DNA from: a virus
Strand: one strand, 5' to 3'
DNA length: 64,000 bases
IMG/VR virus record: IMGVR_UViG_3300045836_000083
Coordinates: 62-64,061 of that record
Position numbers and translations under genes: made by a program. Positions 10,074 through 15,969 of this stretch are shown here, piece after piece. Under the pieces are notes generated by a model. That model searched no databases, was not told the DNA's origin, and saw nothing but the letters and a program-made list of their open reading frames with translations. Every line of letters starts with the position of its first letter. Positions within the stretch are counted from its first letter, which is position 1.

Positions 10074-10484
10074 ATGAACAGGGAAATTAAATTTAGAGTT
10101 TGGGATGCTAAGGCAAAGTTTATGTGTGATTCGGGTAGAATCCCCGATGGCGTACCACATATGAAATATGAAGTTGGACTGTCTGTATCACCAAAAGGTT
10201 GGCATACTGGTATTGATGGGTTACATATACCTTGGAATGATCCAGATTTACCAATAATGCAATGGACAGGTATCGTTGATAAATTTGATACTGACGTATA
10301 TGAAGATGACTTCATTGAAATAACATGGAAAGATAACGATACTACAATCGAACGAATAACATGGGATGACAAATATGCCTATTGGAAATATGGTAATAAC
10401 CCGCTTTGTGAAATTATTGAAGATAAGAATGATTTTAAAGTTATTGGAAACACATATTCAAACCCTGAATACCTAAACAAATAA
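10074..10484 (+). CDS. YopX family protein
   Basis: MNREIKFRVWD...MQWTGIVDK...YEDD...VIGNTYSNPEYL. Confidence 0.9.
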   Translation: MNREIKFRVWDAKAKFMCDSGRIPDGVPHMKYEVGLSVSPKGWHTGIDGLHIPWNDPDLPIMQWTGIVDKFDTDVYEDDFIEITWKDNDTTIERITWDDKYAYWKYGNNPLCEIIEDKNDFKVIGNTYSNPEYLNK

Positions 10485-10487
10485 AGC

Positions 10488-10922
10488 ATGGATAATTCAC
10501 GATTTAAGTTCAGAGCATGGGATAAAGCTACAAATAGAATGCTTGAAACTGGTTTTCATATCTTGGGTGAAGTAACTTGTTTTGATATTATTACACAGAA
10601 GTTAATGGAGGAACCTTTAGGTAAAACCACGTTAGAAAGAATAGGTGATGTAATTATAATGCAATGGACTGGATTTAAAGACGACAAAGGAATTGATATA
10701 TATGAGGGGGATATTATAAAAGTATTTTCGTCTTCCGTAAAATATTATGAGGTATTTTTTAAAAATGGCACTTTTCGGCTAAGATACCAATTGGATTCTG
10801 GTGAATTTTATGATTGGGGGCCATTATTTAGATTATTTGAAATAGCCACGGAAAAAGATATTCAAACAACTATTGAAGTTATAGGTAAAATATACTCTAA
10901 CCCTGAACTCTTAAATAAATAA
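10488..10922 (+). CDS. YopX family protein (second copy)
   Basis: FKFRAWD...MQWTGFKDDKGIDIYEGDII...VIGKIYSNPELL. Confidence 0.9.
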   Translation: MDNSRFKFRAWDKATNRMLETGFHILGEVTCFDIITQKLMEEPLGKTTLERIGDVIIMQWTGFKDDKGIDIYEGDIIKVFSSSVKYYEVFFKNGTFRLRYQLDSGEFYDWGPLFRLFEIATEKDIQTTIEVIGKIYSNPELLNK

Positions 10923-10925
10923 TGT

Positions 10926-12553
10926 ATGTACCAAGAAATATATGAGATACCAGATAGTGTAAAAGATTTATTTGCACAAGGCGAAAGTAGTTATCGTATT
11001 ATAAACTATAATCCAGGTATGGAAATGGACAATATACAATCCATGAAACATTTCCTTGTCTGTATTGGTGCTTCTAGCGAAAATATAGAATGTGATGACG
11101 GCACCCAAGTAACATTAAAGCATCCGGATTATCCTAATTGGATGGTTATTGATGCAGGAGGTTTAGGAGACTTCTTTTCTCATAGTTTTATGGTTACTAA
11201 ATATATCCCCGGTTAAAAATAAAAGTTATGACAGACAAACAATGGGAAGAAAAAATAAATAACTTTTTATCAGCTATTGAACAAGTTAGAGATAAGCATA
11301 AATTTGAATCAGCAATGATCTTAGGCGCTTCGGAATATACCTTTAGAATAAAATCAATGCACGATGATAAAGCAGCAGCATATGACTTTGTGTTAAGAAA
11401 ACTTAAACGTCAATTTAACCTAAAATAAAACATCATGGCACATCCTTGTATACATTGTGGGGGGGAATGTTATTGCTCCGGGTCATGGGACGACATTATA
11501 GTAGACCATACGCCTAAAAGCTGTAAAGGTTGCGGTTGTGAATCATTCTTGGATTGGGAAGATAATGACTGTGATAATTATTGGGATGATGACGAAGAAG
11601 ATTTAGAAATACTAGATTCACCAAATAAAGTATAAATATGCCCGGACTACGAATAGCAAAAGCAACAGAAGATGATATTGATACAACCAGAAACTTTCTC
11701 CAATCCTGTGAAGTCTTTTGGGATAATAGACAAATATTTTCATTACGAGAACTAGAAAGTGATTGGGAAAACTGGGACGATGATGACCCTGATAAAATAG
11801 AATTAAAGAAAATTCAGCGAGAGCTAGCAGACGAGGAGGGTATAAAAATAAAGTTTCTAGATAATCGTTTAGTAATTTACGAATATATCAAAAGAAAATA
11901 CAAACGAGCAGATAATAAATGGGGCCGTGTAATTATGGCTGCCGATATACTTATTGATAATTGCTGTGATCCCACAGAAAATCACTTAGCATTTTATCCT
12001 GCTTTTGAAATGTTTCACGTTGCGCCTGAACAATAATTACCTGATTAGTTTCTAAAATATGAAAACCATAACCTTTAGGCCACTTCGTAGAGTTAAAAAG
12101 ACCGGTAAAATCACTGTTGCATCCTACATGCAATGGAATAAGGTAAGGTGTGGGGATTATAATAAATTCACCCTAGTAGTAGATACAGAATATAAACAAT
12201 TACCGCTTGATGAATTTGTTTATGACCATAAAGGCGAACTACTCTATTTCTTTGATTATAATCCTGCCGATGTTCCAGTGTTCCAAAGTAATAAACTAAT
12301 GACACTCGACGAAATGATCGGTAACAACAAAATGTATGGTATTCTTTGGGATTATGGAGGACGTGTAAATTATCACATGAGAGGAGCCGATTGTGTTGGA
12401 ACACCAACATTTAGTCATTGGACGGCTGATTATATTGCTGATTATTGGAAAGAACCAAATGATTTTGAACCATTAACAGTTAAGACTGTGGTAACCTGGT
12501 TTGGATGGTTCTTGTACCAATTACAAAATTCATATTTACAAATGGGTAAATAA
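10926..12553 (+). CDS. Five hypothetical genes (10926, 11228, 11435 Cys-rich/acidic, 11638, 12059)
   Basis: Tightly packed co-oriented ORFs. Confidence 0.7.
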
Positions 12554-12585
12554 CACTTGGTAACCTGATTAAAATATTGTAGCGT

Positions 12586-12933
12586 ATGTCAAAAAATAAA
12601 ACCCAAACTAGTTTGGAAGCCTATGCTTCTTTAGGGCCTGATAAAATTAATGAAACATATCGACGTATTTTATGGGCCCTAACTCAAATAGAGGAAGGTA
12701 CGTTTGAAAACATAGCTACTGCACTTAATGAAAAAGAATCCAGGATATGGAAACGCCTTTCAGAAATGGCAAGAATGGATTTGATTTACCGAACAGAAAA
12801 CAAAAGAGAATTATCAAGTGGTAGAATGGGCTATACCTGGAAGGCTACATTAAAAGGTTCTCCTACAATATCTGATCATTCACGTAAAATATCCAAGATA
12901 GCTAATACTGTAAAACAACTTAATCTTTTATGA
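12586..12933 (+). CDS. Winged-helix DNA-binding protein
   Basis: GTFENIATALNEKESRIWKRLSEM followed by a beta-wing (ELSSGRMGYTWK). Confidence 0.6.
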   Translation: MSKNKTQTSLEAYASLGPDKINETYRRILWALTQIEEGTFENIATALNEKESRIWKRLSEMARMDLIYRTENKRELSSGRMGYTWKATLKGSPTISDHSRKISKIANTVKQLNLL

Positions 12934-13682
12934 ATCATGGAAGTTTATTTTCTGGAATAGGAGGGTTTGATTTAGCCGCATCAGGGATGAATTGGGAAAA
13001 TAAATTTCATTGTGATAAAAATTATTTTTGTCAAAAAATATTAAAAAAACATTTTCCTAGCTCTATTTCATATGGAGATATTAAAACAACAGATTTTACA
13101 ATTTGGAGAAATAAAATTGACATCCTTTCAGGAGGATTCCCTTGTCAGCCCTATAGTATCGCAGGAAAAAGAAAAGGTATTGAAGATGAACGCCACTTGT
13201 GGCCGGAAATGCTTAGAGCAATTAGAGAAATTCAGCCAGGTTGGATTGTGGGCGAAAACGTTCGCGGCCTTATTAATTGGGACGGAGGATTGGTATTCGA
13301 CCAAATGCAGGCTGACTTGGAAGCTAATGGCTACGAAACACTCCCGTTTCTACTTCCAGCTTGCGCCGTCAACGCTTGGCACCGCCGAGACAGAATCTGG
13401 TTTATTGCCTACTCCGACGAGTTCAGACGCAAAGGGCGAAAGCAAAGGTTGTGCAAGACACAAGAAGAGGGACATGATAAGAAGGATAACTTTACAAGAT
13501 CATTACAACCAAGTAAGTTCGGAAACAATATACCCACATCCAGAATACTTAGAAGTTCTAATGGGATTTCCGCCCAATTGGACAGAATTGTAGCTCTTGG
13601 TAATGCTGTCGTACCGCAATTAGTGTTTCAAATCTTTAAAGCTATTGATAAATACGAAAAACAACTTAATTTACTCTTATGA
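12930..13682 (+). CDS. C5 cytosine DNA methyltransferase, alpha polypeptide (motifs I-VIII and X)
   Basis: Motif I LFSGIGG, motif IV GGFPCQPYS, motif VI ENV, motif VIII HRRDRIW and motif X ALGNAVVP are present. No motif IX in this frame. Confidence 0.93.
   Translation: MNHGSLFSGIGGFDLAASGMNWENKFHCDKNYFCQKILKKHFPSSISYGDIKTTDFTIWRNKIDILSGGFPCQPYSIAGKRKGIEDERHLWPEMLRAIREIQPGWIVGENVRGLINWDGGLVFDQMQADLEANGYETLPFLLPACAVNAWHRRDRIWFIAYSDEFRRKGRKQRLCKTQEEGHDKKDNFTRSLQPSKFGNNIPTSRILRSSNGISAQLDRIVALGNAVVPQLVFQIFKAIDKYEKQLNLLL
13072..13593 (+). CDS. Nested +1-frame ORF: methyltransferase beta polypeptide (variable region/TRD plus motif IX)
   Basis: Encodes LLPTPTSSD...PHPEYLEVLMGFPPNWT, the TRD and motif IX text missing from the alpha frame. 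Confidence 0.85.
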   Translation: MEILKQQILQFGEIKLTSFQEDSLVSPIVSQEKEKVLKMNATCGRKCLEQLEKFSQVGLWAKTFAALLIGTEDWYSTKCRLTWKLMATKHSRFYFQLAPSTLGTAETESGLLPTPTSSDAKGESKGCARHKKRDMIRRITLQDHYNQVSSETIYPHPEYLEVLMGFPPNWTEL

Positions 13683-14943
13683 CCGTAGAAAATTTATTGA
13701 AACCAAGATACAAATTAATAGCTGATTATCCAGGTAATATGCTAAAAATAGGACACATATTTGAGTTGGTACAACATGAATTTTTTAGCGAATACCCACA
13801 TTTATTTAAGCCACTTGAATGGCATGAAGATCGTAAACCTGAAGATATTTGTGAATATGTTAAAACTAATCCAGAAAGAACAATTGAAAGTTTTGTTTCA
13901 AAAGTAATATCAGTGGAATTATTTGATGATGGTATCGGTATATCTACAGAAAACCGTCTAGGTAAATTTCCTTATACTCACTCTAAATATTTTTTACCAG
14001 CGACAAAAGAAGAATACCAAGCATTCGTTAATTCACAAAATTCAAAATAATATGTGGCGACGTTATCGTTTTAGGACAAAATCAGTAGATGATGAAAGAC
14101 CTATAATCTTTAACCGTGCATATCCTTGGTGGTGTTCTGGATATGGACTCGGAGGAACAATTAATGAACCAGGATATGATTCAGCAATTATCATAGCTTT
14201 TTTACCTTCAAACGAAGATTTAAAAAAATATTGGCCTGATGCTTATGAAGTTGAATATACCGAACATGAAACAATTGAGTTTAGCGATCGTTTCCCAAAA
14301 CCATCCTATTATGAAGAATTAAATTCAAAATAAATGATACTAGAAGATATATGACAAAATACGAATATTATTTATTGGAAGAACTTTTGGGAAAACTACA
14401 TCTGGAATTAAAGCACCGGTATTGCATAATTCCGGGTCATCTTGCAGACGGATACCACATTGCTATTTACAACACAAAAAACGGAGATGTTAAAGCAACT
14501 GCTGATGCCGCAACGATCATGGATGCCGTGGCGGCTATAAATACTAAATAATTTACATGAAAATAAGTAAGCGCCAACGGAGATTAGAAGCCCAACGACT
14601 GCTTAATAAACCAGAAACCAAATTTGAGGCGATAGATTTAAGTAAGCCTGCATTTATTCCTGAAGGCATGACCAGGGCATTTAGAAACAATAGGTACACC
14701 GTAATGATCTACGATAACTGCAAAACAACTCATGGAACAGCAATACAAGTGCTTATCCAAAATCATTTCGACGAACCGATAAAGAACCATTGGGGCGAAA
14801 TACAGCGTATTAAAAATGAAATATTTGGGCCCGAAGTAATGGCCATTGAATATTATCCCGCAGAATCAGAATTAATAAACGACCATAATATTTATTGGAT
14901 ATTCATTTATCCACAAGGAGTTATCCCTAAAATATTTACATGA
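13679..14943 (+). CDS. Four hypothetical genes (13679, 14052, 14351, 14557)
   Basis: From the ORF track. 14557..14943 has a WGEIQRIKNEIFG...EYYP...NIYW pattern common in phage proteins. Confidence 0.7.
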
Positions 14944-15023
14944 AAAACCACACGATCAATAACCGTTCCCAGTTCCAATAATCCTATCTTACCTCACTGT
15001 GTACAAAAAAATACTCAATAAAT

Positions 15024-15055
15024 TTTGTTAATTCAAAACCTGTGCCGTAGCATTG
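15024..15055 (+). promoter_or_regulatory. Probable Bacteroidota-type promoter
   Basis: TTTG (15024-27), N20, then TAGCATTG (15048-55), one mismatch to TAnnTTTG. Confidence 0.5.
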
Positions 15056-15074
15056 TGTCTTAATATTTACCCAA

Positions 15075-15278
15075 ATGACTTTAACCCCTTTAGATGAAAT
15101 AGCTATTGAAGCTCAATACAAAGCTATTATCCAGGTTTTAGAACAAGTGGACTTCAATAAGTCTAAAGCCGCAACTTTACTCCAAATAGACCGTAAAACA
15201 CTTTATAATAAAATTCACGCATACAAAGAATTGAAAGCCATAAGGGCTTCCGGTAATCCTATTCCTGAAACCCTTTAA
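15075..15278 (+). CDS. Fis-family (HTH_8) DNA-binding protein
   Basis: IIQVLEQVDFNKSKAATLLQIDRKTLYNKI. Confidence 0.88.
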   Translation: MTLTPLDEIAIEAQYKAIIQVLEQVDFNKSKAATLLQIDRKTLYNKIHAYKELKAIRASGNPIPETL

Positions 15279-15288
15279 AAAATGAGGC

Positions 15289-15969
15289 ATGGCAAAAGAC
15301 CCTGCATTTTTATTTTACCCGGGGGATTATTTAAGAGATACTCAGTGTTTATCAGAAAAAGCACAAGTAGCCTATGACAGAATCATGTGTGAACACATGA
15401 GGAACATATGTAAAGATGTGTCGAAGATAGGCATAACAAAAGATAAACTAAATTTCTTCACAAAACGGCTCAATGAGGATGAAAAGAGCGACCTAATGAG
15501 TGTTTTAGTAAAAACCGGCGAAATTTTTCAAATTGAATGGGTCGCTTTAAGTATTTGTAAAAGAAAGAATTATAGCGATAATAGAGCTGAAAACAGACGT
15601 GGAAAAAAGTCAAAAGATATGAAAACATATGTTTCACATATGGAAAATGCAAATGAAAATGTAAATGATATTGTATTAAAAGGGGGTGTGGGGGAAAACG
15701 GATTATGTTATGACATCGAAAAATATCTACTTGCACATCCTAAAGACTTTCAGGCCGTGGCTTCAAGTAGCCATAGATTACCAGATGAAGTAAAAAACAG
15801 CCTCACTAAATATCATTTATTCCTACAAAAGAAAGAGGATTACCCTAAAAAGCCACTACCTCTTATATCAGGCTTTAAACTTTGGTTAATGAATGAAAAA
15901 AGCAATAAAAATGGAATTACCCCTAAATCAGAACTTGAATCAGTTGGTAAAAAATTTACATCTGACTGA
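15289..15969 (+). CDS. Phage replication initiator (YdaU/DUF1376-like N-terminus)
   Basis: MAKDPAFLFYPGDYL start, MENANEN linker, and position directly before a DnaC-like ATPase. Confidence 0.65.
   Translation: MAKDPAFLFYPGDYLRDTQCLSEKAQVAYDRIMCEHMRNICKDVSKIGITKDKLNFFTKRLNEDEKSDLMSVLVKTGEIFQIEWVALSICKRKNYSDNRAENRRGKKSKDMKTYVSHMENANENVNDIVLKGGVGENGLCYDIEKYLLAHPKDFQAVASSSHRLPDEVKNSLTKYHLFLQKKEDYPKKPLPLISGFKLWLMNEKSNKNGITPKSELESVGKKFTSD

Follow-up and report, generated by a model that had tools for sequence, protein, structure and literature searches.

We have analysed a 64,000-nucleotide stretch of viral DNA (positions 62 to 64,061 of IMG/VR record IMGVR_UViG_3300045836_000083; hereafter the window) and propose that two overlapping frames within it very probably encode an obligate two-chain C5 cytosine methyltransferase of the M.EcoHK31I type. 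The larger open reading frame (ORF), alpha, reads as the catalytic large domain, and the ORF nested inside it in the +1 frame, beta, as a candidate recognition and docking subunit. Both ORFs exist, and both are conserved and under selection. That the locus specifies two polypeptides had been proposed earlier from the letters of the DNA alone (the sequence-only reading), and the proposal is supported by the conservation of the nested frame, by frozen synonymous sites, by a disordered linker in alpha and by a model of the complex.

The ORF list returns exactly the coordinates that the sequence-only reading had given for the two frames (Table 1), and its estimate of about 520 dual-coding nucleotides compares with the 522 counted here, all on the same strand. 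As in M.EcoHK31I-type loci, both ORFs share a strand and the second is nested within the first in a different frame. Motifs I, IV, VI, VIII and X can all be read in the 250-residue frame, with no motif IX, and LLPTPTSSD and PHPEYLEVLMGFPPNWT are found in the +1 frame, as had been stated. The order in alpha is motifs I-VIII, spacer, motif X; the beta stop lies 6 nt before motif X, from where coding is single again. The ATG of alpha shares an ATGA with the stop of the upstream gene, and its stop shares an ATGA with the ATG of the next gene. Such overlaps of start and stop are usual for phage operons.

That the +1 frame is a gene came foremost from its conservation. We fetched 80 viral loci with alpha homologues, 77 of which hold a complete alpha. 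Stops in the +1 frame of close homologues had been named in the sequence-only reading as evidence against a nested gene; the frame is unbroken in all 77 loci, being open for 167-339 codons, and it contains PTP in 75 and GFP in 71 of them. It is kept open in loci down to ∼45% alpha identity. Both frames are conserved in the homologues, as key alpha residues are invariant and the +1 proteins align as a family. When the synonymous codons of alpha were shuffled with protein and codon usage kept, the longest +1 open stretch of the window, 182 codons, was reached by 6 of 5000 permutations (permuted mean 77), and the observed +1 length was out of reach for all 300 permutations in 58 of 64 loci. The +2 frame has a longest open stretch of just 49 codons in the window and a median of 37.5 codons across loci.

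Selection on beta is also visible at the synonymous sites of alpha. We scored third-position entropy at conserved four-fold-degenerate alpha codons and compared segments of the overlap with the single-coding ends, where it was 1.62 bits (alpha residues 1-47) and 1.64 bits (residues 222-250). Entropy over the overlap with beta residues 1-47 (1.48 bits) was not different from these ends. It fell to 0.82 bits over beta residues 48-100 (p 3.6e-5) and to 0.48 bits in the spacer, over beta residues 115-173 (p 0.008). The alpha synonymous sites are therefore frozen where beta is conserved.

Alpha shows the features of a catalytic large domain. Its match to Pfam PF00145 is restricted to residues 2-178 (E 4e-42). 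Among 70 alpha homologues, F7, G9, G11 and G12 of motif I, H151, R153 and R155 of motif VIII, and G224, N225, V228, P229 and Q230 of motif X are invariant, and G68-S76 of motif IV are invariant or almost so in alpha homologues. The predicted structure is confident at residues 1-175 and 226-250. By Foldseek, its fold corresponds to the large domains of M.HaeIII and M.HhaI (E ∼1e-13, 166-170 columns) and also to the alpha subunit of M.AquI (M.AquIA). Residues 176-225 are predicted to be disordered, with a predicted local distance difference test (pLDDT) score below 50, and neither Pfam nor the predicted structure gave a motif IX or a structured small domain in residues 162-223.

The spacer of alpha is kept open and is unconserved as protein, and its length varies widely among homologues. 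The alpha homologues found by searching number in the thousands, are 250-440 residues long and share the same build, in which motifs I-VIII are followed by a segment of very variable length and then by DDG[LIV][SP]..LD...GNAIVPQ; none of 12 aligned homologues has the PTP module or LMGFP in frame 0. The only conserved residues of the spacer, D211, G212 and D218, are frame-0 shadows of beta M164, G165 and W170, and the L/I/V and then S/P that follow the conserved spacer glycine are the product of the free wobble bases of beta G-F-P. Elsewhere in the overlap, the DNA of motif IV reads EDSLVSPIV in the weakly constrained N-terminal tail of beta, and third codon positions over this motif are still variable. 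The DNA of motif VIII overlaps beta ESGLLPT.

Table 1. Coordinates of the nested methyltransferase locus in the window (position 1 is the first letter of the window); assignments of function are predicted.
Feature	Position	Strand	Description and basis
Alpha gene (250 residues)	12930..13682	+	Listed ORF; frame 0; C5 cytosine methyltransferase catalytic large domain
Alpha motif I, FSGIGG, residues 7-12	12948..12965	+	Sequence; S-adenosylmethionine (AdoMet) binding
Alpha motif IV, GGFPCQPYS, residues 68-76, catalytic Cys72	13131..13157	+	Conservation
Alpha motif VI, ENV, residues 109-111	13254..13262	+	Sequence
Alpha motif VIII, HRRDRIWFIAY (HRRDR = 151-155)	13380..13412	+	Sequence
Alpha spacer, residues 162-223	13413..13598	+	Frame-0 reading of the beta recognition/motif IX region
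Alpha motif X, GNAVVPQ, residues 224-230	13599..13619	+	Conservation
Beta gene (173 residues)	13072..13593	+	Listed ORF; +1 frame, fully within alpha; putative recognition/docking subunit
Beta docking core, residues 44-100, GRKCLEQLEKF..GLWAKTFAALLIG..WYS..C.LTWKL.ATK..RFYFQL	13201..13371	+	Synonymous constraint, complex model
Beta LLPTPTSSD module	13402..13428	+	One copy in window; conservation
Beta motif IX-like segment, PHPEYLEVLMGFPPNWT, ending LMGFPPNWT	13534..13584	+	Profile match, complex model

The +1-frame proteins form a family of their own. Database matches to beta comprise 3993 cluster representatives, 192 of them below 1e-30, and many align residue 1 to residue 1. In PHROGs the two proteins belong to separate families, alpha to phrog_363 and beta to phrog_1008. 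The alignment of the beta family begins with an N-terminal tail, M..Q.SLFTE, followed by the conserved core SG.KCLEQ..KF...G.WAKTF..LLIG..WYS..C.L.WKLKATK..R.YFQL, by modules of LPTPxxxD and by the end SQLNP.FV.EMMGFP..WT. In the window, the nucleotides of the docking core also encode alpha residues 91-147, motif VI included. Beta G110, L111 and T114 are almost invariant in homologues, which carry one to about ten LPTPxxD modules. The window locus is minimal, with a single PTP module and with alpha and beta among the shortest. In 50 of 63 loci, the +1 frame has its first ATG no more than 12 nt from the position that aligns with 13072, and in the 56 loci that have no ATG further upstream this ATG lies no more than 36 nt downstream of that position.

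When compared with PDB sequences, the single sequence of beta gave a chance match only, and the sole matches of the beta profile were to M.HhaI residues 267-302, its motif IX, which directly precedes motif X. The sequence-only reading held that beta supplies motif IX. This part of the claim is supported by the profile match and by contacts in the complex model, and it falls short in that beta appears to be a whole recognition and docking module whose core overlaps alpha motifs VI-VIII. From sequence and modelling, motifs I-VIII and X would thus reside in alpha and motif IX in beta, the split known from M.EcoHK31I.

Co-folding of the two chains, which had been suggested earlier, gave a model of the complex that passes its controls, scoring 0.88 versus 0.02 for the best control. 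Of solved complexes, 58 of 80 reached this mark, as did 2 of 110 mismatched pairs, counts that are only rough for the window pair because own alignments were used. Three runs had 80% of contacts in common, with a partner pLDDT of 61-62. In the model, MGFP..W of beta (residues 160-166 and 170) contacts motif X (223-230), motif I (10, 12, 15) and helix 33-41 of alpha; beta strand 92-99 pairs with alpha 139-143, and beta helix 58-68 packs on the C-terminal helix of alpha (234-245). Beta 111-115 (LLPTP), which lie within the LLPTPT module, are in the interface as well. As single-chain C5-methyltransferases have been solved, the pass may partly reflect likeness to the canonical enzyme. The model supports binding of alpha to beta without showing it.

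How the two chains could work together is suggested by these features. Alpha would be a complete catalytic large domain, with the AdoMet site, the catalytic cysteine, motifs VI and VIII and a C-terminal helix bearing motif X, in which a spacer of about 60 unstructured residues would take the place of the small domain of a canonical enzyme. Beta would be initiated internally in the +1 frame, at ATG 13072 or nearby, and would be the small domain that is absent from alpha. It would consist of a loosely constrained N-terminal tail, a conserved core of helices and hairpin for docking on alpha, a single recognition module LLPTPTxxD, and motif IX, the last packing on motifs X and I of alpha. The assembled enzyme would methylate a target sequence in phage DNA, and such methylation would probably serve evasion of host restriction.

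A more far-reaching proposal, which taken as a whole we regard as possible and rather unlikely, concerns the origin and use of these parts. The docking core of beta (residues 44-100) may have no counterpart in single-chain methyltransferases, having arisen de novo; it may have overprinted the motif VI-VIII region of alpha after the segment of a canonical gene with the target-recognition domain and motif IX had moved to the +1 frame. The spacer of alpha may be a pure frame-keeper that serves only to reach motif X, and the number of LPTPxxD modules (one to about ten) may determine how long the recognised sequence is, or which sequence it is. If this were true, a large phage family would constitute a natural modular DNA-recognition system.

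Several points weigh against the proposal of an obligate two-chain enzyme. We infer that beta is translated, that both chains are needed, that the enzyme is active and that its purpose is anti-restriction. There is no Shine-Dalgarno sequence before 13072, and the alpha start also has none. Residues 1-47 of beta are under no significant synonymous constraint (p 0.25) and residues 1-38 are predicted to be disordered; since the N-terminus is both predicted to be disordered and not independently constrained, the exact start of beta is uncertain. A Pfam scan of beta gave no family. Folded alone, beta reached only a moderate pLDDT of 64, and Foldseek found no PDB match to its predicted fold at E ≤0.001. 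The profile match to motif IX of M.HhaI is statistically weak (E 0.58). Judged from the models, beta probably folds only on alpha.

That every catalytic motif lies in alpha, and that alpha folds well without beta, would be consistent with a real yet accessory beta, in which case alpha would function alone, perhaps with relaxed specificity, and beta would tune specificity, stability or regulation. The variable number of PTP modules would also suit a swappable specificity factor. We consider this improbable, given that alpha has neither a structured small domain nor motif IX, that the model has a large interface in which motifs I, VIII and X take part, and that the alpha chain of M.EcoHK31I without beta gave no methylation (PMC2836561).

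Because one chain cannot contain both the beta core and alpha motifs VI-VIII, we reject as very improbable the double frameshifting that the sequence-only reading had raised as an alternative. Here, a programmed +1 shift past motif VIII and a -1 shift ahead of motif X would yield one polypeptide and so rebuild a canonical single-chain enzyme. The most constrained part of beta, residues 44-100, and motifs VI-VIII of alpha are the same nucleotides, FIAY and LLPT fall on shared bases, and beta 44-100 contacts alpha in the complex model. What the frameshifts would explain is that motif VIII, the PTP module, motif IX and motif X are colinear in the DNA with a canonical gene and that motif X begins only 6 nt past the beta stop; however, the +1 frame is already kept free of stops over some 110 codons before any useful shift site is reached, and the ATG of beta is positionally conserved.

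There is next to no likelihood that the +1 ORF is no gene, whether a chance frame, a shadow of codon constraints on alpha or an indel trace in a decayed methyltransferase, for even though conservation of alpha forces part of the apparent conservation of beta over motifs IV-VIII and beta 1-47 has no independent constraint, the frame is open in every one of the independent loci, the permutations reject chance, synonymous sites are frozen over the conserved parts of beta, the spacer shows conservation in the +1 frame and not in frame 0, and the complex model passes its controls.

The closest described precedent for an obligate two-chain enzyme is M.EcoHK31I of E. coli HK31 (YGGCCR), a two-polypeptide C5-methyltransferase (Lee, Kam and Shaw 1995, as recounted in PMC2836561 and PMC3404938). 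Its beta chain lies wholly in another frame of the alpha gene and both chains are required; motifs I-VIII and X are in alpha and motif IX in beta (PMC2836561, PMC3404938), which agrees with how the sequence-only reading had described it. Alternative internal methionine codons are used (PMC2836561). The window locus is likewise a two-chain system with beta nested in alpha and with chains of similar size. The beta chain of M.EcoHK31I has about 176 residues, and that of the window has 173. The two differ in that the target-recognition domain of M.EcoHK31I is assigned to alpha by the published description (PMC2836561, PMC3404938), whereas the PTP module and docking core of the window locus are in beta. 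Because the segment between motifs VIII and X of the window alpha is short, variable, unconserved and disordered, the recognition part must be in beta. The window gene had no blastn match in 5,426 E. coli genomes, and M.EcoHK31I was not among the Swiss-Prot fold matches of alpha.

Overlaps of this kind have been noted in phages and mobile elements. The "total overlap" of two C5-methyltransferase products was called striking in the 5093-group phages of Streptococcus thermophilus (PMC5601072, 2017), where pneumococcal phage MM1 (Obregon 2003) and Tn5252 (Sampath & Vijayakumar 1998) are cited for the same feature. As far as these pairs are described there, they resemble the window locus in being orphan C5-methyltransferases of mobile elements whose two products are read from the same DNA in different frames; the difference is that PMC5601072 notes the overlap without mechanism or subunit roles. 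No Streptococcus phage was among the tblastn matches of beta at E ≤1e-3, so any kinship of these pairs with the window subfamily may be distant.

Closer relatives are found in other phages. In GenBank, the nested gene is annotated for Paenibacillus larvae phages (Tadhana_54/55 and Lily_62/63, "g62 internal gene"), and beta is left unannotated in ORF40 of Lactobacillus phage Lc-Nu and in Bacteroides and Porphyromonas phages. All are homologues of both window chains with the same nesting, their beta being 35-39% identical to that of the window over 92% of its length, and they are known only from annotation or sequence. The Paenibacillus and Lactobacillus hosts are Firmicutes. In plasmid and prophage copies from Bacillus, Lacticaseibacillus, Bacteroides, Leptospira and cyanobacteria, alpha alone is annotated. 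The earlier remark that such a locus is easily misannotated is thus true in general, except that some GenBank phage records do annotate the nested gene. A paper on 48 Paenibacillus phages lists both genes, and no discussion of the overlap appears in the passages found; a literature search on motif IX in an alternative reading frame gave no match. The layout is not new, in view of M.EcoHK31I in 1995 and the phage cases since, and the window locus is a clear new example of it.

A natural heterodimer of another kind is M.AquI, a C5-methyltransferase with sequential subunits and with motifs IX and X in beta (PMC3404938). It resembles the window enzyme in being split within the variable region and in the fold match of alpha; it differs in that its subunits are sequential, whereas the window beta is nested and motif X is in alpha. 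The "DNA methylase" pairs of mycobacteriophages were considered as the same layout and rejected, as genes 78 and 77 of Mycobacterium phage MeeZee (L086) are sequential and not nested, with an overlap of 23 nt. The MeeZee pair splits a related methyltransferase in a different way, one nearer to that of M.AquI or to a frameshift.

Within the beta family, some members have unusual structures. Among 106 proteins that match the core of a long beta homologue, three also carry PF00145 (P0361, P0362 and P0363). P0361 and P0363 were rejected as single-chain relatives, since their contigs show frameshift chimeras at a poly-G tract, and the protein sequence of P0362 shows the same junction. Tracts of 10-11 G occur at one site of the family (L084:1850-1860, L085:1850-1860, L002:2350-2360, L015:2350-2359 and L036:1539-1549), which falls at "NWxGG" of alpha and "LLIG...W" of beta. 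In L084 and L085, the loci of P0361 and P0363, a tract of 11 G joins the N-terminal part of alpha (motifs I-VI) to the C-terminal part of beta and strands the other halves; one additional G would restore both genes. Either phase variation, by which the two subunits would be switched together, or an assembly error in the homopolymer could account for this. No such poly-G tract is present in the window. In P0122 and P0127, alpha residues 1-80 (motifs I-IV) run directly into beta from about residue 30, which probably reflects indels in the assemblies; P0127 also has a second, duplicated PTP/MMGFP end.

Other members are much longer. P0146 is a beta-type protein of 342 residues with an HNH endonuclease domain (PF13392), which suggests that some members carry a homing nuclease as an insertion in the nested gene or as a fusion to it. 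Beta homologues reach 452 residues (P0185, P0195, P0258), and the alpha spacer lengthens in step with the beta modules, giving alpha frames of up to ∼490 codons (L038, L069). The long-spacer members hold hundreds of stop-free codons without apparent protein conservation.

Standard gene callers allow one gene per stretch of DNA, and therefore annotation of this family mostly lacks the recognition subunit, or calls alpha a truncated methylase. Predictions of phage methylation specificity, anti-restriction capacity and host range that are based on annotation would miss the DNA-reading part, and expression of the annotated gene alone might yield an enzyme that is inactive. In addition, the locus is a clean case of 522 nt of same-strand dual coding in a double-stranded DNA phage, in which selection is measurable on both frames, and it would be useful to calibrate methods for detecting overlapping genes.

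M.EcoHK31I is part of a restriction-modification pair, and the window locus has no recognisable adjoining nuclease. Searches of Pfam and PHROGs gave no nuclease domain in the ten neighbouring ORFs (10074-15969) or in four further ORFs to 21319, most of which are of unknown function. It is plausible that the window methyltransferase is an orphan that serves anti-restriction. It is located in a replication/early module of small phage genes, together with two YopX paralogues, a DUF7694 protein, a DnaC-like helicase loader and several unknowns. The YopX-family paralogues (PF09643) are adjacent to each other upstream of alpha, at 10074-10484 (+; E 6e-14) and 10488-10922 (+; E 5e-21). Directly upstream of alpha is an ORF of 115 residues (12586-12933, +) that matches phrog_1123 and whose stop overlaps the alpha start.

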